Source: a virus (lineage: Duplodnaviria > Heunggongvirae > Uroviricota > Caudoviricetes). Taken from it: DNA of 7,066 nt. Numbering within the stretch: the stretch's first letter is position 1; each line of letters opens with the position of its first letter. Positions 1 to 7,066 of this stretch are shown here, piece by piece. The DNA is taken from IMG/VR virus record IMGVR_UViG_2531839098_000010; one strand, written 5' to 3'. The translations under genes and the position numbers were made by a program. The notes beneath the pieces are model-generated. The model made no database searches and was not told where the DNA came from. It saw only the letters and a list, made by a program, of their open reading frames with translations.

Positions 1-62
1 GTCATCCTGTTTACCTCTTTCTCAGGGAGTTTAGTCTCCAGGATTCCCGGGGCGGTTCAGCT
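1..62. repeat. Left copy of a perfect 62-bp inverted repeat; its partner is at 7005-7066
   Basis: Reverse complement of 1-62 is identical to 7005-7066. Identity ends at position 63 (g) versus 7004 (g), which are not complementary. The repeat lies inside the open frame that continues into tfa. Confidence 0.9.
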
Positions 63-588
63 GGCCGGAACTAATGAATTTATTGGTGAAGGTGACGCAT
101 ACATTCCGCCTCATACAGGTCTGCCAGCAAACAGTACCGATATTGCACCGCCAGATATTCCGGCTGGCTTCGTGGCTGTTTTCAACAGTAATGAGGCATC
201 GTGGCATCTCGTTGAAGATCATCGGGGTAAAACGGTTTATGACGTGGCTTCCGGCGACGCGTTATTTATTTCTGAACTCGGTCCGTTACCGGAAAATGTT
301 ACCTGGTTGTCGCCGGATGGAGAGTGTCAGAAGTGGAACGGCACATCCTGGGCGAAAGATGCAGAAGCAGAAAAACTGTTTCGGGTACGGGAGGCAGAAG
401 AAACAAAAAACAGCCTGATGCAGGTAGCCAGTGAGCATATTGCGCCACTTCAGGATGCCGTAGATTTGGATATTGCGACGGAGGAAGAGGCATCGTTACT
501 GGCTGCATGGAAGACATATCGGGTATTGTTGAATCGTGTTGATACAACAGTAGCAGCGGATGTTGAGTGGCCAGTCGCCCCACAATAA
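1..588 (+). CDS. tfa: Tail fibre assembly protein, lambda Tfa type; 5' end lies outside the window
   Basis: Frame 1 is open from base 1 to TAA at 586-588. Residues from [31 protein letters not shown] to the C-terminal [15 protein letters not shown]...EWP motif closely resemble lambda Tfa as I recall it. There is no in-frame start before the conserved region (first ATG at 172 would cut it), so the start must be upstream of the window. Confidence 0.85.
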
Positions 589-594
589 AAAGAA

Positions 595-624
595 AAAGCC
601 ATCGACAGAAATATCGATGGCTTT
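595..624. terminator. Bidirectional intrinsic terminator between convergent tfa and acetyltransferase genes
   Basis: Stem 595-605 (aaagccatcga) pairs with 614-624 (tcgatggcttt) around an 8-nt loop. On the minus strand it is followed by a T-rich tract (tttttcttttta). It sits 6 nt after the tfa stop and 7 nt after the acetyltransferase stop. Confidence 0.6.
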
Positions 625-631
625 ATGTACT

Positions 632-1204
632 CTATTTATACAATACAACACCACTCTTTTTAGTTATATATGTGCAGTTTGATGGTATATCTTTATTTAT
701 AAAAGACATTGCACCTATTTTTACATTATCCCCAATTTTACGTGATAATCCAATGATGCAACAATTAGCTCCGATATCAACGTTACTACCAATTTTTACT
801 CTTGAACTAGGCATATCACCATCTATCTGTCCAATGGTAGTATTCTGTCGTAATACCAGATTTTCACCCGCATCAACAGCAAAATGAACAACAATTCCAG
901 CATGATGGGGAATTGTCAACCCTTTTCCAATATTTGCGCCCAATCCTATTTCACAACCAAACTTGTTAATTATTTTACTGTTTAACTTTTTGGCTGCTTT
1001 CTTATGTAATTTATTACCATTAATATACATTTCGTTAGCCAACCGCCACCAGAAAAGGAAATTCCGGTTACGCTGCTTTTTCTCTCTTAAAAGCCTCCAG
1101 ATATCCATACGTTTCCGCCGAATTACTTCATGTTTCCAGAAGTTTTTTAAATTAGTAGAGTTTCCAAATAAAACAAAGTGAATTGCCATTAAGTAAGATA
1201 GCAC
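632..1204 (-). CDS. Hexapeptide-repeat acetyltransferase, WcaB / serine O-acetyltransferase (CysE) family; AT-rich cargo gene
   Basis: The track ORF is 632..1237. The probable start is GTG at 1204-1202, preceded by an AAGGAG ribosome-binding site 6 nt upstream. The C-terminal half has tandem hexapeptide motifs (GCEIGLGANIGKGLTIPHHAGIVVH..., IGSNVDIGANCCIIG, IGDNVKIGAMSFI) typical of left-handed beta-helix acyltransferases. GC content by eye is about one third, against mid-50s in the flanking tail genes. Confidence 0.75.
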   Translation of the reverse strand: MLSYLMAIHFVLFGNSTNLKNFWKHEVIRRKRMDIWRLLREKKQRNRNFLFWWRLANEMYINGNKLHKKAAKKLNSKIINKFGCEIGLGANIGKGLTIPHHAGIVVHFAVDAGENLVLRQNTTIGQIDGDMPSSRVKIGSNVDIGANCCIIGLSRKIGDNVKIGAMSFINKDIPSNCTYITKKSGVVLYK

Positions 1205-1255
1205 GATAATCTCCTTAATTATTATTTCAGACCACACATGTTATAAGGTTAAGAG

Positions 1256-1284
1256 ATTATAAAATCCTGTTATTTGTTATTCAA
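1256..1284 (-). promoter_or_regulatory. Putative sigma70 promoter for the acetyltransferase gene
   Basis: Minus strand reads TTGAAT (-35, 1284-1279), a 17-nt spacer, then TATAAT (-10, 1261-1256). This lies about 50 nt upstream of the GTG start, with an A/T-rich tract upstream of the -35. Confidence 0.5.
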
Positions 1285-1317: not shown

Positions 1318-1350
1318 GTCGCCAGTCACCTTCATCAGGAAATTGGCGAC
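1318..1350 (-). terminator. Possible weak terminator hairpin after tail gene U
   Basis: GTCGCCA (1318-1324) pairs with TGGCGAC (1344-1350), a 7-bp GC-rich stem with a large loop, about 10 nt after the U stop. The following minus-strand tract is only moderately U-rich. Confidence 0.3.
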
Positions 1351-1360
1351 ATACGTTAAA

Positions 1361-1855
1361 TCAGAGCAGCCCCTTAACTGAGCTGGCCGCGCTATTAAGG
1401 GATGATGTCACCTTATCTTTGAAGCCGGACAGCATATCGCTGAACGATGAGGATTGCAGGCGCTCCCGCAAATCCTCATCACAGCGTTCAAGAGTCAGTG
1501 AAAATTCTATCTTTTTCGCCTTACCGTAGCGATCAAACTCGGAGCGGGTCGTATTCGTTCCGGTCAGGACATACATGCCGTAAATCTGCCCGACGCCATC
1601 AATCAAAGGCCAAGGACGTCCTGTATATGCCTGCGTGGTCAACAACGACAGCGACACTTCGCCACCAGTAATCTCAGGATAAAGAACACCAGAAAGAACG
1701 ATGCGATCATCACCTGCACCGATATACTGCCAGCTTGCTGAACGGTTAACGCGTTCATTTTTCACATGTCGCCAGCTTTTGTTTTGCTGTAACTGCTGAT
1801 GCGGCAACGTGCGCAGCTCAAAAACAAACATGCCGTAGATCATCATCATGGCCAT
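1361..1855 (-). CDS. U: Phage tail protein U (P2 gpU family)
   Basis: The 164-aa ORF directly follows the tape-measure stop. Its N-terminal MAMMMIYGMFVFELRT...SWRH and EITGG motifs are as I recall for P2 gpU-like proteins. A GGAG ribosome-binding site overlaps the T stop, so the true start is probably ATG at 1849 rather than 1855. Confidence 0.85.
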   Translation of the reverse strand: MAMMMIYGMFVFELRTLPHQQLQQNKSWRHVKNERVNRSASWQYIGAGDDRIVLSGVLYPEITGGEVSLSLLTTQAYTGRPWPLIDGVGQIYGMYVLTGTNTTRSEFDRYGKAKKIEFSLTLERCDEDLRERLQSSSFSDMLSGFKDKVTSSLNSAASSVKGLL

Positions 1856-1861
1856 GACTCC

Positions 1862-2698
1862 TCAATCTTTATCGTAAAAACTGCCACGCCTGGCACGGGC
1901 GCGCCGTTCCATTTCTGCCCTGACCATTTCGCCGACCAGTTTCGCCAGTTCGCGGGGATTCTGCGTAACAACGTTATGCAGATGAACATGAATTTCACCG
2001 CCAAATCCGGAGGCAACAGGCTCCCGGTTACGGGAAGTTGCAGGAACTGATGCCACTGGCGATCGTATGGCCTCCACCACCGGGCGGGAGCTGGCCGCAA
2101 CAACAGGGACCAGCGCCGGAGGCAGCGGAGCCGGGACCACGGGTGTGATATTAATTGCGGGGGCAGGCTTACTGACCTGCGCAATCTTCCGCTCCTGCCA
2201 CTCCCCACGAACAGCAAGTGCGCGGGGCAGGTTCTTAAAGACAATATCGCCGGGGCCAATGCGTTTTTTTGTCTCATCAACCAGCTTACCTGTGTTATCA
2301 GCAATTTTGCTGAGTCTGCGTAGCGTGCCGGTATTGCTGTCTGTGAGAGGTTTGTTGTCTTTGGGTTTATCATCTCCGGTGCCATTGCTATTTCCCGCAG
2401 ACTTCGGCGGATTGATTTTCGCAATGTCTCCCTGAAACAGAGCAACCTTGTCCTGAAGAATGGCCGCACGTTGTGCGTCTTCGATTTTCTTGCGCGCCCT
2501 TTCCGCTTCATCCGGAAGCACACCGAGTTTTTCAAGTATCCACGCCAGCGTATCCAGCAACATTTTTGCAGGCGTCAGAACAAGCTGTAACGCACCACCA
2601 AGAACGTTACCGAATACCTCGCCAGCACTGGTACATTTATCCAGCGTTTCCTTGCTGGACTCCATCGGTGACAGCAGCGATTTAAACCAGTTAAACAC
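1862..2698 (-). CDS. T: Tail tape-measure protein T, C-terminal portion, in a frame shifted by one relative to the N-terminal portion
   Basis: The 278-aa frame is contiguous in sense with the upstream tape-measure frame. It has tape-measure-like low-complexity and Pro/Ala-rich composition and ends immediately before U. It has an in-frame stop just upstream (2723-2725), so it cannot start independently except at a GTG. Confidence 0.75.
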   Translation of the reverse strand: MFNWFKSLLSPMESSKETLDKCTSAGEVFGNVLGGALQLVLTPAKMLLDTLAWILEKLGVLPDEAERARKKIEDAQRAAILQDKVALFQGDIAKINPPKSAGNSNGTGDDKPKDNKPLTDSNTGTLRRLSKIADNTGKLVDETKKRIGPGDIVFKNLPRALAVRGEWQERKIAQVSKPAPAINITPVVPAPLPPALVPVVAASSRPVVEAIRSPVASVPATSRNREPVASGFGGEIHVHLHNVVTQNPRELAKLVGEMVRAEMERRARARRGSFYDKD

Positions 2699-4701
2699 CT
2701 GGCTGAACCGCTTCCGATTACGTCAAAAACAGGGCCAAACCGTTCAAAGGTGTCGCGCAACGGGGTCAGCCTTTCCATAATCCCGCTGAACACCCCGGCA
2801 AAGAAAGCCCTGATAGGATCCCAGTATTTCCAGATAAGAACGGCAGCTCCGGCAAGCGCAGCCACGATAAGACCAACCGGACTGAACAACGCCCCGATAA
2901 CGCCTCCCAGTAAAGAAACGGAACCCGTCACCATTCCCCATAGCGCAGGTAACACCCTGACGACATTCATTGACCGGGTAAGAATGTCAAAACCAAGACG
3001 CAGGGTGGCCAGCTTCCCGTAAAGCACCCCAATAACCAGCGACAACGAGCCAATCGTTGCAGTCATTGCCAGCAACGCACCGCCTGCTATCAGTAGCTGG
3101 CGCGTCAGTACCGGATGGGCCTGCGCCAGCGAGGTGATTTTTTCAAGCACCCGCGTGAGCCACTGCGTGACAGAACGCAGCGGACCGTCAACCAGATCAC
3201 TGATGCGAATACGAAGACCTTCCCATGCGCTGTCGAGATTTTTCAGGTCCCCATCAAGATTATCAGCCATTACTTTTGCGACGCGATCGGCCTCTCCCCT
3301 TGCCCCCTGCAATTCTCTGGTCAGTTTTTGCAGCTCTCCTGAACCAGCCGCCGCAACAAGCGTCTGCAAACCAACGAACGCCTCTTCTCCGGCGATGTCC
3401 TTGAAGAAGGAGACCTGGTCCACCTGTCCGTATTTTTGTGTCGCCTTATAGAGATCAAGCAGCACATCCTCCATCGGGCGCATTTTGCCTCTGGCGTCAG
3501 CAACTGACACCCCCAGCTCTTTCAGTGCATCAGCCGCAGCTTTTGGCGGTGATGCAAGGCGGGACAGACTTGCGCGCATGGCCGTGCCAGCATCGCTTCC
3601 GCGAAGACCATTATTGGCAAGCATCCCGGCCATGGCCGCCGCTTCTTCAAGACTGATACCAAGTTTTGCGGCAACCGGACCGGTATACTTCATGGTTTCG
3701 CCCAGCGCGCGTAAATCAGTATTGGTCCGGGTAAATGCTGCTGTCAGCGTATCGCCCACCCGGTCCATTTGATCGGCTGTCAGGTTGAACTGTGTGAGGA
3801 TATTGGAGCCTATATCAGCCGTCTCGCCGAGTTCGACGCCACCTGCCAGCGCCATATTAAGAACACCGGGCAATGCGGCCTGAATGGCCTGCGGAGTAAA
3901 ACCAGCCATTGCCAGAAAGCTCTGCCCACTGGCGGCATCACTCGCAGTAAACTGTGTTTCAGCAAGTTTTAACGCCTGCTCACGCAGCGCCTTAAACTGC
4001 GGGCTGTTTTTGTCGATTCGCGTCAGTGCCTGAACGCGGGACATCTCTTTGCCGAACCCGATCGCAGGCTGCAAAAAACGCCCGGCAGCATAGCCGCCCG
4101 CCGCTGCCGCACCAATTGCCAGCGCACCACCTGTTTTCAGTTTTCCCGCGGTTTCCTGCGCGTGCGAATACCGCTCACGCGCCTGCGTTACACGCGCAAG
4201 CGCCTGCCGTTCGCGTTCAAGCTGGTTGTTGTATTGTTCGGTGCGTCTGATGGCCTGCTGAATGGTGTTATCGCTGCCTGTCAGGGAAATGCCGTGGCGT
4301 TTCAGCTCTCCGCCAAGTTCCCTCATTTTCTGAATTTCCCGTGTGCGCGATTCATTCAGGCGTTCAAGCCGGGTGCTTAACTGCTGCATCAGCTTTTGTT
4401 GTTTTTCGCTGAGCACTGTACCCGTGCGTTGTAACTGATTAAGGGCGTTAAGCTGGCGTCGTGCTTTCACGATGCCAGCATCCGCTTTACTGACAGCGTC
4501 GCGGGCGCGCTCAAATGATCGCGCCTGACGCTCGAGATTTTTGATCGCCCCCTGCGTTCGCTGGATGGAGTCACCAAACTGCCCCATCAGGCGGCGTGCG
4601 TTTTCGGCAGGTCGGGTCAGCCTGTCAACGGCGCTGAAAGCGACCCGGATATCAAGAGTCTTCATTGTCTGCATTCCCGCTGCGAAGTGCCGCCCGCTCA
4701 C
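2575..4701 (-). CDS. T: Tail tape-measure protein T, N-terminal portion; the last ~44 codons before the stop at 2575 are out of frame
   Basis: Long ORF between E' and U with coiled-coil-like, Ala/Leu/Arg/Gln-rich sequence followed by hydrophobic segments. The track start at 4701 is GTG; a more likely start is ATG at 4674 or 4665, overlapping the end of E'. Sequence after ...FDVIGSG (about 2707) looks like out-of-frame read-through (Cys/Arg/Trp-rich). Confidence 0.85.
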   Translation of the reverse strand: MSGRHFAAGMQTMKTLDIRVAFSAVDRLTRPAENARRLMGQFGDSIQRTQGAIKNLERQARSFERARDAVSKADAGIVKARRQLNALNQLQRTGTVLSEKQQKLMQQLSTRLERLNESRTREIQKMRELGGELKRHGISLTGSDNTIQQAIRRTEQYNNQLERERQALARVTQARERYSHAQETAGKLKTGGALAIGAAAAGGYAAGRFLQPAIGFGKEMSRVQALTRIDKNSPQFKALREQALKLAETQFTASDAASGQSFLAMAGFTPQAIQAALPGVLNMALAGGVELGETADIGSNILTQFNLTADQMDRVGDTLTAAFTRTNTDLRALGETMKYTGPVAAKLGISLEEAAAMAGMLANNGLRGSDAGTAMRASLSRLASPPKAAADALKELGVSVADARGKMRPMEDVLLDLYKATQKYGQVDQVSFFKDIAGEEAFVGLQTLVAAAGSGELQKLTRELQGARGEADRVAKVMADNLDGDLKNLDSAWEGLRIRISDLVDGPLRSVTQWLTRVLEKITSLAQAHPVLTRQLLIAGGALLAMTATIGSLSLVIGVLYGKLATLRLGFDILTRSMNVVRVLPALWGMVTGSVSLLGGVIGALFSPVGLIVAALAGAAVLIWKYWDPIRAFFAGVFSGIMERLTPLRDTFERFGPVFDVIGSGSARCLTGLNRCCHRWSPARKRWINVPVLARYSVTFLVVRYSLF

Positions 4702-5181
4702 GCCAGCTAACCACTTCGCCGGGCGTCATCATGAAGATTTCGGCGGGCGACCAGTTAAAAATAACGGCAATATCTGCCACAAAGTCTTCTATGTGCTCAA
4801 AGCACACAACCGTGATCAGGCTTCCGTCGCCTGTTCGTTCTTCCCGCCAGAGTCCGCACCGCTCAAAAAATTTACGGCAACCACACATAACTGAATAAAG
4901 TCACGGGATGCCATTTTTTTGATCGTCACTTCATCCAGTCGCGGTGATGTCACGCGTGACAGCAGCGTAAACATGGATTCCGCTTTCAGATTCAGCACAT
5001 CAGACAGCGACAAATCTCGCAGAGATCCAGCCTGCTCAATAGCCCCGGTGATCTCCACATACGTGATTTTTTCGCCGCCTCGCTCAATTGGTTGGGTAAG
5101 TTTTACACCACGCTCACTGGTTTCTTTCACAGTGTCAGTAACTACCGTGTTTTCGGTATCGATGTTTTTCGTCTCTTTCAT
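4652..5181 (-). CDS. E+E': E+E' fusion chaperone produced by programmed -1 translational frameshift
   Basis: A -1 frame opens exactly at the slippery site (FFERCGLWREER...NADNEDS) and ends at TGA 4654-4652, overlapping the start of T. This is the arrangement described for the P2 tail operon. Confidence 0.7.
4816..5181 (-). CDS. E: Tail assembly chaperone E (P2 gpE family)
   Basis: The 121-aa ORF sits between the tube gene and tape measure, with an AAGGAG-like ribosome-binding site 7 nt upstream of ATG 5181. It contains the slippery heptamer near its 3' end. The position and frameshift architecture match the P2 E/E' and lambda G/GT pattern. Confidence 0.8.
   Translation of the reverse strand: MKETKNIDTENTVVTDTVKETSERGVKLTQPIERGGEKITYVEITGAIEQAGSLRDLSLSDVLNLKAESMFTLLSRVTSPRLDEVTIKKMASRDFIQLCVVAVNFLSGADSGGKNEQATEA
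4864..4870 (-). other. Slippery heptamer T TTT TTG for the E to E' -1 frameshift
   Basis: Minus strand reads aaT TTT TTG with codons aat|ttt|ttg in the E frame, the X XXY YYZ pattern. The -1 frame from ttt ttt gag is open for a further ~70 codons. Confidence 0.7.
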
Positions 5182-5203
5182 CAGGAAACTCCTTTCAGTC
5201 AGA

Positions 5204-5222
5204 GGCGACGCACTGCGCCGCC
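5204..5222 (-). other. GC-rich RNA hairpin in the FII-E intergenic region
   Basis: In the minus-strand transcript, GGCGGCGC pairs with GCGUCGCC (8 bp including one G-U pair) around a 3-nt loop. There is no U-tract after it, so it is not a canonical terminator. Confidence 0.35.
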
Positions 5223-5235
5223 TGCATATTACTTA

Positions 5236-5748
5236 TCAGCCAAGCCCAAGCGCGGAACGGATGCGATCGGGCACAATGTCCTTGCCGTCCTTCCGGTAAA
5301 TGAAGTTCAGCAGGTCAATCTCCCACAACGGGCGATCGTTAACACTCAGCTTGTAGTAGGTGTTTTTAATGGCGTAAGTGTGTGATGTGGCTTCTCCCTG
5401 TTTGGCTTCCCCCATATCAATTTCCGTCACACGTCCGCGCATTTCGACTTCATACAGGTCGCTTTCATCATCGGTGTAGTATTCCCCCGCAAAACGCAGT
5501 AGCGTGCCGTCAATCGTGCCGCCATACTTCAGGAACAGCTCACGAACTGCGCCCCCCATGACAAAGCTCGCATCAAGCGCGGAGTCGTCCAGGCCGAGGT
5601 CAATACTTACCGCACCCATCATGCCACCACCCCGGTAGCTGTCGGTTTTGCGCGTCAGTTTAGGCAGGGTGACGGACGTCACCTTACCCACTTCGTTTTC
5701 ACCATCCACAAACAGCGTAAAAAAGCGAAGATGTTTTGGTACAGCCAT
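5236..5748 (-). CDS. FII: Tail tube protein FII (P2 gpFII family)
   Basis: The 170-aa ORF has motifs SVTLPKLTRK, YRGGGM, DLGLDD and EMRGR as I recall for P2 FII-like tube proteins. Its ATG overlaps the FI stop by 1 nt (TGATG), with a GGGAGGTG ribosome-binding site upstream. Confidence 0.9.
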   Translation of the reverse strand: MAVPKHLRFFTLFVDGENEVGKVTSVTLPKLTRKTDSYRGGGMMGAVSIDLGLDDSALDASFVMGGAVRELFLKYGGTIDGTLLRFAGEYYTDDESDLYEVEMRGRVTEIDMGEAKQGEATSHTYAIKNTYYKLSVNDRPLWEIDLLNFIYRKDGKDIVPDRIRSALGLG

Positions 5749-6932
5749 CAGGCACCTCCCAGCACCGCAAATGCGGGACCAAAGAATTCATCAGTAAACG
5801 ACTGGTAAAGCTCCATGTCTTCCAGCGGAGGAACGGGCGTATATTTGTAGCGAATACGCACACGCCCCTGACGTAAATTCGTGGTGCTGTTATCCTCGAT
5901 GTCATACCAGCACTCCGCGCCAATCAGTTTCCCGGCAGTAACCAGTGAATCCAGTTTTGCCCTGATGGCACTGATAACATCCTTCACGTTCGCAGGTGTC
6001 AGTGGACTGTCGATGGTTTCAAACTGCGCTTCCGCAATTGAATCAGCCAGCACCTGTGCGGTTCGGGTATACACCTCAAAGATGTAGGCGTTCGTTTCCG
6101 GTGTGCGGTTGCCCCAGAAGCGGAACCCGTTGCGACGAATAATGGTCGTGATTTCTTTGTTGTTGAGGCTGTTGGCATCACTGTCTTCGGCCTGCAACGA
6201 CCAGAACACATGCCTCGACATCCCAAGCACATTTTTAACCGGAACGTTGGACAGCGATTTGTGCCAGCCCTGCTCATGGTCAATGTACGCACGAAGGCCG
6301 CACGCATAAGCAGGCGCGGGGAACGTTTCGTTTTTGCCACTTTTCAGGTTGTAGGCGATGAAGTCAGGCCATAAGAGCATCACCTCACGTTCGTTGAATT
6401 TCTGGCGGTAGGTAATCGCCTCAGCCATCGTGTTACAACCATGACATGTGGCATACACAAACGCGCGCAGTTTACCCGCAATCACGCACAGGGATTTTGT
6501 TACCGCCTCCGTGTCCAGCTCCGGCGCGGCCAGAATACGCGGACGGTATCCGATGCTTTCATCCTGCTCTGCAACAAGCAGCGCATACATCCCCGTATAG
6601 CTGCCGTCAGATTCAGAACCACCGATAACCAGTTGATCCTGCGTCTTACCGCCTTCTTCTTTGTGTTCAGCCACGCGAACGACGATCACTTTTGTGCTCA
6701 CCTGGTCTGCGATAGCCTTAAGCGCACGATAAAGCGTCCCCGTAGTCCCGCATTTTCCCAGCACGTCATTGACGCGGGTCAGCAGTGTGGGCTTGTTCAG
6801 CGGGAACAGCTCCGCGTCCGCATCATCTGCCGTTGCCACGATACCGATAACACTGGAATCAACATCATTAATCGCTGTTACCAGGTCGGTACTTTCCGTA
6901 ACACGGGCACCATGAAAACGAGTTTCACTCAT
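5748..6932 (-). CDS. FI: Contractile tail sheath protein FI (P2 gpFI family)
   Basis: The 394-aa ORF has motifs FPLNKP, KLRAF, WPDF, EQGWHKSLSNV, RRNGFRFWGNRT, YTRTAQV and YTPVPPLE characteristic of P2-type sheath proteins. Gene order FI-FII-E-T-U matches P2. Confidence 0.9.
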   Translation of the reverse strand: MSETRFHGARVTESTDLVTAINDVDSSVIGIVATADDADAELFPLNKPTLLTRVNDVLGKCGTTGTLYRALKAIADQVSTKVIVVRVAEHKEEGGKTQDQLVIGGSESDGSYTGMYALLVAEQDESIGYRPRILAAPELDTEAVTKSLCVIAGKLRAFVYATCHGCNTMAEAITYRQKFNEREVMLLWPDFIAYNLKSGKNETFPAPAYACGLRAYIDHEQGWHKSLSNVPVKNVLGMSRHVFWSLQAEDSDANSLNNKEITTIIRRNGFRFWGNRTPETNAYIFEVYTRTAQVLADSIAEAQFETIDSPLTPANVKDVISAIRAKLDSLVTAGKLIGAECWYDIEDNSTTNLRQGRVRIRYKYTPVPPLEDMELYQSFTDEFFGPAFAVLGGA

Positions 6933-6994: not shown

Positions 6995-7066
6995 TCACCG
7001 TAAGAGCTGAACCGCCCCGGGAATCCTGGAGACTAAACTCCCTGAGAAAGAGGTAAACAGGATGAC
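6995..7066 (-). other. 3' end of a minus-strand reading frame entering from outside the window; ends three codons after the right inverted repeat
   Basis: On the minus strand the inverted repeat encodes the same peptide as at the left end (...[20 protein letters not shown]), but here it continues LLR and stops at TGA 6997-6995, 62 nt upstream of the FI start. It is either the C-terminus of an upstream gene or a truncated copy of the tfa 5' end. Confidence 0.35.
7005..7066. repeat. Right copy of the perfect 62-bp inverted repeat
   Basis: Exact reverse complement of 1-62. Confidence 0.9.

Follow-up and report, generated by a model that had tools for sequence, protein, structure and literature searches.

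The 7,066-base window analysed here (the whole stretch of DNA, from IMG/VR virus record IMGVR_UViG_2531839098_000010) corresponds, base for base, to part of a decayed P2-like prophage adjoining yecA/tRNA-Leu in Escherichia coli O157:H7. Its plus strand holds the 3′ part of the tail-fibre assembly gene tfa, and its minus strand carries an acetyltransferase gene, gpU, the tape-measure gene (frameshifted), E/E′, and the genes for the tube (FII) and the sheath (FI). The present analysis concerns the acetyltransferase gene, for which the elements at and around the locus are as follows:

632–1204, minus strand: acetyltransferase coding sequence (CDS), 190 aa, with a GTG start at 1204 and a TAG stop at 632–634; PGAP places a CDS at the same coordinates.
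1211–1216, minus strand: Shine-Dalgarno sequence AAGGAG, 6 nt upstream of the GTG start, read from the sequence.
1256–1284, minus strand: sigma-70-like promoter candidate, TTGAAT (1284–1279), 17-nt spacer, TATAAT (1261–1256); consensus scan, 10/12 matches.
595–624, either strand: intrinsic terminator hairpin with a 13-bp stem and a 4-nt loop, separating the acetyltransferase gene from the convergent tfa; terminator scan and RNA fold.
1319–1351, minus strand: imperfect hairpin GUCGCCA...UGGCGAC followed by U-rich sequence, just past the gpU stop; RNA fold of 1240–1395.
1–588, plus strand: tfa (tail-fibre assembly, the equivalent of P2 G), with its 5′ end cut by IS1203 in the source strain and the PGAP start at window position 43; Pfam Caudo_TAP at 2.6e-40, annotation and cassette homology.
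1361–1855, minus strand: tail gene U, the last gene of an inverted FI-FII-E-T-U block; Pfam Phage_P2_GpU at 1.5e-38, annotation and P2 reference order.

A first-pass annotation of this sequence had described, at 595–1284, an AT-rich cargo gene of about 190 aa lying between U and tfa with its own promoter, a strong ribosome-binding site and a terminator. All of these parts were recovered, from the terminator stem to the −35 hexamer: Pfam matches to Phage_P2_GpU and Caudo_TAP lie on either side, and the AAGGAG motif, which accounts for the ribosome-binding site, is kept in all close homologues from P2-type contexts and from contexts of the L056/L064/L065 type. The minus-strand open reading frame (ORF) extends over 632–1237 up to its outermost GTG, the GTG at 1204 being the likely start, and the 190-aa product is identical to RefSeq WP_000954203.1. 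Two plus-strand ORFs inside the region (567–887 and 963–1181) were judged to be antisense noise, because all homology is carried by the minus-strand ORF, and an Rfam search over 595–1284 returned no RNA element. The lower GC content reported earlier is evident as well (0.33 vs 0.53 in the flanks): the CDS has a GC of 0.340 and a third-codon-position GC (GC3) of 0.284, and the GC is 0.330 over 595–1300, compared to 0.534 for the rest of the window and a GC3 of 0.56–0.59 in U and FI. The 190-aa ORF is intact across the loci compared and displays the signature of purifying selection, with a ratio of nonsynonymous to synonymous substitution rates (dN/dS) of 0.11–0.17 against five relatives at 85–95% protein identity and one mosaic allele at 71%.

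The Pfam Hexapep model alone scored the protein under its gathering score (24.1 vs 27 bits). The family profile, built from 30 homologues, matched CysE crystal structures at E = 9.4e-24, and its matches to structures of CysE, LacA, LpxD and GlmU spanned E values from 9e-24 to 1e-11. An AlphaFold2 (AF2) model built from a 105-sequence alignment reached a predicted local distance difference test score (pLDDT) of 96.3 and a predicted template modelling score (pTM) of 0.89, and includes five N-terminal helices followed by a beta-helix; the top 50 Foldseek matches were all CysE-type structures, with template modelling (TM) scores of 0.67–0.76. A first AF2 model, built from a 30-sequence alignment and with an unreliable beta-helix (pLDDT 50–65), was discarded and superseded by this one. 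The family profile, the AF2 model and the Foldseek comparison thus agree with the hexapeptide-repeat acetyltransferase of the WcaB/CysE type proposed initially, and the left-handed beta-helix, the absence of which had been named as evidence against that proposal, is confidently predicted. We refer to the following protein features below:

Residues 1–82: N-terminal five-helix domain (AF2 model).
Residues about 85–180: left-handed beta-helix (AF2 model).
Residues 126–135: hypervariable loop (column entropy).
Glu85/His100: catalytic pair, corresponding to CysE Asp143/His158 (alignment, column entropy).

As modelled, the protein is therefore a CysE/WcaB-type left-handed beta-helix acetyltransferase. 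Its leading NCBIfam matches, EpsC, CysE and WcaB, all fall under the curated cut-offs (76/150, 62/211 and 55/196 bits, respectively), and it is 35% identical to WcaB over 109 aa and 29% identical to CysE. In PHROGs, it matches phrog_2154 (2.9e-87), a phage family with an annotated function of “unknown”. A library-wide search with the family hidden Markov model (HMM) retrieved only 74 representative clusters at E ≤ 1e-30 within a superfamily of more than 37,000, and the same HMM gave 227–296 bits to the seven members scored, vs 97 to WcaB and 74 to CysE. By these profile scores, the phrog_2154-type acetyltransferases are a small, distinct family. The family profile matches one 944-aa protein (P0135) six times over, in separate stretches (273 bits); this protein may consist of several acetyltransferase units fused in tandem, or else result from an assembly artefact.

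The name that RefSeq and UniProt attach to this protein, serine acetyltransferase, has some basis in its similarity to CysE. The best sequence and structure matches in the Protein Data Bank (PDB) are CysE enzymes, with which the protein shares the overall two-domain fold (at the TM scores given above) and the catalytic dyad of a histidine and an acidic residue: His100 is near-invariant (entropy 0.08), and position 85 is D or E throughout the family. CysE residue numbers were mapped by alignment with E. coli CysE and WcaB, with residue roles taken from PMC9547175. Unlike the catalytic pair, the residues by which CysE binds serine and cysteine are absent: Asp92 has no equivalent, Asp157 is replaced by P99, and Arg192/His193 by S134/R135, all at positions that vary across the family. 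In addition, the scores are far below the curated cut-offs for cysE (62.3 vs 210.65 bits for TIGR01172 and 36.4 vs 397 for PRK11132), the N-terminal helical domain is about 60 residues shorter than in E. coli CysE (~82 vs ~140 residues), and the protein ends 10 residues past the beta-helix (...VVLYK), whereas CysE runs ~35 residues further. The loop at 126–135, equivalent to the CysE substrate loop, is the most variable stretch of the family and adjoins an invariant RQNTTIG motif. Because the serine-binding residues are absent and no curated cut-off is reached, the database name “serine O-acetyltransferase” is probably wrong. We thus consider it very improbable that this is a genuine serine O-acetyltransferase raising O-acetylserine and cysteine synthesis for the phage or the lysogen, a reading for which the low score of CysE against the family HMM is a further difficulty. 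With the general-base pair His100/Glu85 kept but the serine pocket missing, the acceptor would most likely be a sugar hydroxyl rather than L-serine. Hence, of the two acceptors suggested by the first-pass annotation, sugar or serine, we retain only the sugar as likely; its caution that the substrate is not readable from one sequence was a fair one.

Expression signals around the gene vary in strength. The hairpin at 595–624 is clearly non-random: on the minus strand its stem is followed by UUUUUCUUUUU, its folding energy is −18.1 kcal/mol (z = −6.47), and none of 200 shuffled sequences was as stable, so that the rho-independent terminator described earlier is well founded. With A/T runs flanking the stem on both sides (the U-run being on the minus strand), this terminator is probably bidirectional. 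It is conserved in close homologues, and distant ones (L067, L070 and L073) have different hairpins at the same place. The near-consensus promoter sequence that had also been described is present upstream of the gene, with a predicted transcript start ~45 nt before the start codon, but its match is not statistically distinctive and it is not found in all contexts. The AT-rich stretch contains 4 promoter-like sites vs 3.7 ± 1.5 in shuffled sequences, and since such sites are no rarer than expected by chance, the match alone is weak evidence; moreover, the hexamers are weakened to TTAAAT/TACACT in L056/L064/L065 and replaced by unrelated sequence in P1-like loci, both of which count against expression from a promoter of its own. 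The position of the site and its conservation in P2-type contexts (L012, L047 and L066), even where the CDS has diverged (L066), lend the candidate some support.

The gene is also co-oriented with U and starts 156 nt downstream of it, with only the imperfect hairpin at 1319–1351 in between, and its independence from late transcription is consequently not established. This hairpin is non-canonical and was not called in the terminator scan; it could possibly act as a weak terminator of the inverted FI-U late operon, in which case the entry of late transcripts into the acetyltransferase gene would depend on it, and read-through from U may occur. The junction between U and the promoter (1285–1362) had no informative match elsewhere.

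Several features of the locus are typical of a phage moron: a foreign base composition, a promoter-like site and a strong terminator (both predicted from sequence), a known cargo slot, and a cassette that is present in some backbones and absent from others. This agrees with the earlier description of a foreign cargo gene in the tail module, AT-rich and with promoter-like, ribosome-binding and terminator signals of its own. In the P2 reference, G and FI flank the lysogenic-conversion gene fun(Z), which is encoded on the other strand; the acetyltransferase gene has the slot and the orientation relative to tfa that fun(Z) has relative to G. The likeness to fun(Z) and other cargo of the G-FI slot extends to a position directly after the tail-fibre assembly gene, an orientation opposite to G and the character of a non-essential, conversion-type gene. 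The two proteins are unrelated, however, and the FI-U operon is inverted here, so that the other neighbour is U instead of FI.

This inversion affects the whole FI-FII-E/E′-T-U tail operon (1361–6932, minus strand) compared to P2 (L094), with D and ogr remaining on the tfa strand; it thereby parts D and ogr from the F operon and brings the cargo gene directly downstream of U. The inverted order is also found in other O157 strains and in L005 (14771–21926), an apparently intact P2-like prophage at a different attachment site, which indicates a lineage trait rather than an artefact of insertion sequences (IS). The source prophage itself is defective, given an interrupted tape-measure gene together with IS elements. 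A frameshift divides the tape-measure gene T (1862–4701, minus strand) into two ORFs that overlap, 2575–4701 and 1862–2698 (labelled “frameshifted” by PGAP), and the homologue of T in L005 is an uninterrupted gene of 2,808 bp. In strain 9234, the window lies between two inverted copies of IS1203/IS629 (window 1–43 and 7062–7066; L003 18792–20005 and 27062–28275), which have taken out the head, lysis and baseplate genes along with the 5′ end of tfa, and the same prophage in other O157 strains displays different IS629/IS30-mediated deletions.

Other observations concern the fibre end of the window. The Rfam model IS009 (RF02111) matches 353–551 on the plus strand with 191 bits (gathering score 117), wholly within the tfa CDS, and was probably built on conserved tfa sequence rather than on a separate RNA gene. 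A 20-nt inverted repeat with 85% complementarity (77–96 / 1325–1344) brackets tfa and the acetyltransferase gene, its second arm falling within the hairpin that follows the gpU stop codon; by a rough estimate this repeat is marginally above chance, and it may mark a former recombination joint or be coincidental. Outside of the window, the same prophage in other O157 strains encodes a macro-domain protein between the tail-fibre gene H and tfa (L001 16540–17442), which is a second unusual cargo gene of the fibre module.

Comparison across phages by blastn revealed that the acetyltransferase gene is part of a cassette of ~1.9 kb, in which the 3′-terminal ~610 bp of the tail-fibre gene form one shared block with tfa and the acetyltransferase gene. 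In the P2-like prophage L005, this cassette (12809–14606/14696) is 93.7% identical to that of the P1-like L002 and 87.5% identical to that of the myovirus L006, with unrelated flanks, and the acetyltransferase is found at 85–93% protein identity in these other backbones. The shared block ends either at the start of the acetyltransferase gene (P1-like) or just past the −35 hexamer (in the third, myovirus backbone). In P1-like phage-plasmids such as JL22, the gene lies midway in the cin-invertible segment, with one of the two alternative sets of fibre and chaperone genes on each side, and in the third backbone, that of an unrelated myovirus prophage encoding a tail protein of the DUF3383 type, the gene is found at the prophage end. 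There are signs of recombination inside the cassette as well: in a mosaic allele (L066 6001–6570, P0007), the first ~25 and last ~35 codons, along with the flanks that hold the promoter and the terminator, differ very little from the window, and the central part, including the active-site loop, derives from a lineage only ~57% identical, which indicates that alleles recombine inside conserved flanks.

The association with tfa extends well beyond these close relatives. A convergent tfa is found within 150 bp of the gene in 65 of 80 IMG/VR loci, the others being mostly contig ends or loci with tfa nearby in another arrangement, and only two loci are without fibre genes. Since this adjacency holds in relatives at 45–67% identity, whose tfa is itself only 39–51% identical, it points to a long co-inheritance of the two genes rather than to repeated insertion. 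Among 22 further, distant viral clusters (for which we counted neighbouring Pfam families hit at least twice), the commonest neighbouring family was Caudo_TAP, alongside other tail and baseplate families, and a minority of these genes adjoin integrases.

The gene is also common in host genomes, being detected in 530 of 5,426 complete E. coli genomes, i.e. about a tenth. Carriers include many sequenced O157:H7 strains, other serogroups of Shiga toxin-producing E. coli (STEC) and P1-like phage-plasmids, a type of element which also spreads resistance genes. Literature searches by protein accession and topic returned no study of the gene, and mentions only in a table of Citrobacter rodentium prophages, where it is listed as an unexplained “serine acetyltransferase”, and in the description of phage JL22.

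To identify a candidate acceptor, we considered the genes next to other family members. Among the matches listed in a profile search of genome contigs, we used L095–L100, the rest being mostly remote superfamily members. In Leminorella grimontii, a family member is found within the waa operon for the lipopolysaccharide (LPS) core, in the order waaB, waaI, waaY, waaZ, acetyltransferase gene and a convergent waaL. This member scores 234 bits against the family HMM (vs 97 for WcaB and 74 for CysE) and shares its low GC with waaY, waaZ and waaL; waaB, waaI, waaZ and waaL are above the NCBIfam cut-offs and waaY above the Pfam gathering score. Prophages provide three further pairings. In Morganella, the gene is followed by a gene of glycosyltransferase family 9 (GT9, heptosyltransferase-like; a weak match) facing the tail fibre, a position held in Xenorhabdus prophages by a family 25 (GT25) gene, and an HtrL/YibB equivalog separates tfa from the acetyltransferase gene in Salmonella-type lambdoid prophages. 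The cargo region of these Salmonella-type prophages (L072 1–1778; HtrL genes in L071/L072) also includes PipA- and PipB2-like type III effector genes. Other chromosomal copies are located beside ugd/arn, or beside a DUF3413+Sulfatase gene which we take to be yejM; either is a weak hint at best. The copy in the window has no LPS-core glycosyltransferase neighbour itself, the waa and glycosyltransferase associations being those of its relatives.

We propose that this phage cargo gene encodes an enzyme that O-acetylates a glycan of the envelope, probably the LPS core, and that would act in lysogenic conversion by masking a phage receptor, a reading whose chances of being right or wrong we judge to be about equal. 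The specific acceptor is a more tentative matter: the LPS core oligosaccharide would be the best single candidate, at somewhat less than even likelihood, with O-antigen, enterobacterial common antigen (ECA) or colanic-acid repeat units as a fallback. It is favoured because of the family member in the waa operon and the prophage pairings, because fibres of the P1, P2 and Mu types bind the LPS core, and because core assembly takes place at the cytoplasmic side of the inner membrane, within reach of a soluble enzyme. The protein would be a cytoplasmic, probably trimeric and acetyl-CoA-dependent O-acetyltransferase, transcribed in the lysogen from its own sigma-70-type promoter and possibly also by late read-through from gpU, with its transcript predicted to stop at the strong terminator shared with tfa. 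The gene is inherited and exchanged as one unit with the receptor-binding fibre tip and its chaperone. Once the lysogen or dying host is acetylated, phages using that receptor, including the phage's own kin, would adsorb poorly.

Known systems offer partial parallels to this proposal. Oac of Sf6, the O157 acetylase of phiV10 and the Gtr modules provide lysogenic conversion of the phage's own LPS receptor, which is the same biological logic as proposed here. These are integral-membrane Acyl_transf_3 or Gtr proteins acting on the O-antigen in the periplasm, unlike the predicted soluble cytoplasmic beta-helix enzyme described here, a 190-aa protein for which no Pfam match to Acyl_transf_3 was obtained. 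WcaB of E. coli K-12 is the nearest characterised homologue of the catalytic domain, with which the protein shares the E...HH active-site pattern and the lack of the CysE Arg-His pair. It differs from WcaB in scoring as a non-equivalog (54.1 and 55.2 bits vs cut-offs of 194.65 and 196), in its longer N-terminal helical domain, and in being phage-borne rather than located in the wca cluster beside wcaA or wcaC. By role, the closest analogue appears to be NeuO of prophage CUS-3 in E. coli K1, which acetylates the polysialic acid of the K1 capsule, a phage receptor, and thereby makes the host more resistant to phage (PMC3046976, PMC13001214). The two have in common that they are soluble left-handed beta-helix O-acetyltransferases encoded by prophages as cargo, and the proposed role is the same, but the host strains here are not K1 and the N-terminal domain is CysE-like. 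NeuO was not among the PDB sequence matches at E ≤ 0.001, nor among the best 60 of 64 profile-search matches, and is thus not a close homologue. NeuO is phase-variable through 5′ repeats; Tandem Repeats Finder identified 0 arrays over 560–1400, and hence no phase-variation repeats of the NeuO type.

Importantly, a number of observations weigh against the proposed role, in addition to those already raised for the promoter. The link to the LPS core consists of one chromosomal operon, among the matches listed, and three prophage pairings, of which the GT9 match in Morganella reaches only 40 bits, and the neighbours that we scanned one by one in the 22 further viral clusters included no additional glycosyltransferases. 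Numerous chromosomal copies stand alone, beside genes that are uninformative, and some family members adjoin integrases or replication genes instead of fibre genes. Because tail-fibre operon ends and prophage ends are generic cargo hotspots, the adjacency to fibre genes may reflect insertion opportunity and co-transfer rather than function. The authors of the JL22 study write that the reason why this gene is present “is still unknown” (PMC9603915).

Two other explanations were considered. The protein may acetylate a different lipid- or nucleotide-linked glycan (an O-antigen unit, ECA, colanic acid or capsule), leading to seroconversion that does not involve the LPS core. We regard this as somewhat unlikely, despite the NeuO precedent of a prophage beta-helix enzyme acetylating a capsule. 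WcaB, the closest characterised relative, acts on a lipid-linked intermediate of colanic acid at the inner membrane and not on the LPS core; the top NCBIfam matches are of the exopolysaccharide type (EpsC, WcaB, NeuD, WbbJ and WcaF), and low GC is typical of O-antigen clusters too. Yet all curated cut-offs for polysaccharide enzymes are missed, and no family member examined lies in an O-antigen, capsule or colanic-acid cluster, compared to one in a waa core operon. The gene is moreover found in E. coli of many O-serogroups (O157, O26, O111, O22 and others) and in several genera, which argues for a conserved acceptor rather than any one O-unit.

Alternatively, the gene could be hitch-hiking cargo unrelated to the fibre, either acetylating a small molecule (xenobiotic, antibiotic or metabolite) or having an unrecognised intracellular role in anti-phage defence or counter-defence. 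In favour of this, both tail-operon and integrase-proximal ends are general moron hotspots, at which some family members are found away from fibre genes, and there are solitary chromosomal copies; the equivalent slot in P2 holds fun(Z), which blocks T5, and beta-helix enzymes do include xenobiotic acetyltransferases. We nonetheless consider this explanation distinctly unlikely. The architecture is of the CysE/WcaB type rather than the xenobiotic-acetyltransferase type, the cassette is conserved in three phage backbones with the acetyltransferase and tfa diverging in parallel, and one family member is found within the Leminorella waa operon. As for the defence role suggested by the first-pass annotation, it gained no support from PADLOC-DB 2.0, in which 0 defence-protein families matched at E ≤ 1.

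Returning to an enzyme that modifies the LPS core, a more specific and rather unlikely extension is that the cassette is a portable “recognise-and-mask” unit, in which the core epitope recognised by the fibre tip with its chaperone is also the one acetylated by the enzyme, which would be the first phage-encoded LPS-core O-acetyltransferase. If so, P2-like, P1-like and other myoviruses would exchange host range and self-exclusion together, as a single unit, and the loop at 126–135 and the mosaic alleles would track receptor diversification.

This sequence has already been widely annotated and remarked on. What is new here is the reassignment away from serine, the structure of the cassette and the association with the LPS core; the first-pass annotation had recognised the type of acetyltransferase and its nature as cargo, but missed both the cassette of fibre tip, tfa and acetyltransferase gene in three backbones and the LPS-core associations. 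A gene carried by about one in ten complete E. coli genomes has probably been mis-named as an enzyme of the cysteine pathway. If the LPS core or another conserved glycan is indeed acetylated, phage susceptibility would be altered, with consequences for phage typing, phage therapy and STEC biocontrol, and recognition of the core by antibodies or innate immunity might change as well. Overall, the movement of the gene in one block with a receptor-binding domain provides a concrete and testable example of the joint exchange of host range and exclusion, and suggests a cheap rule for spotting receptor-modifying genes in phages, namely to search just beyond tfa.

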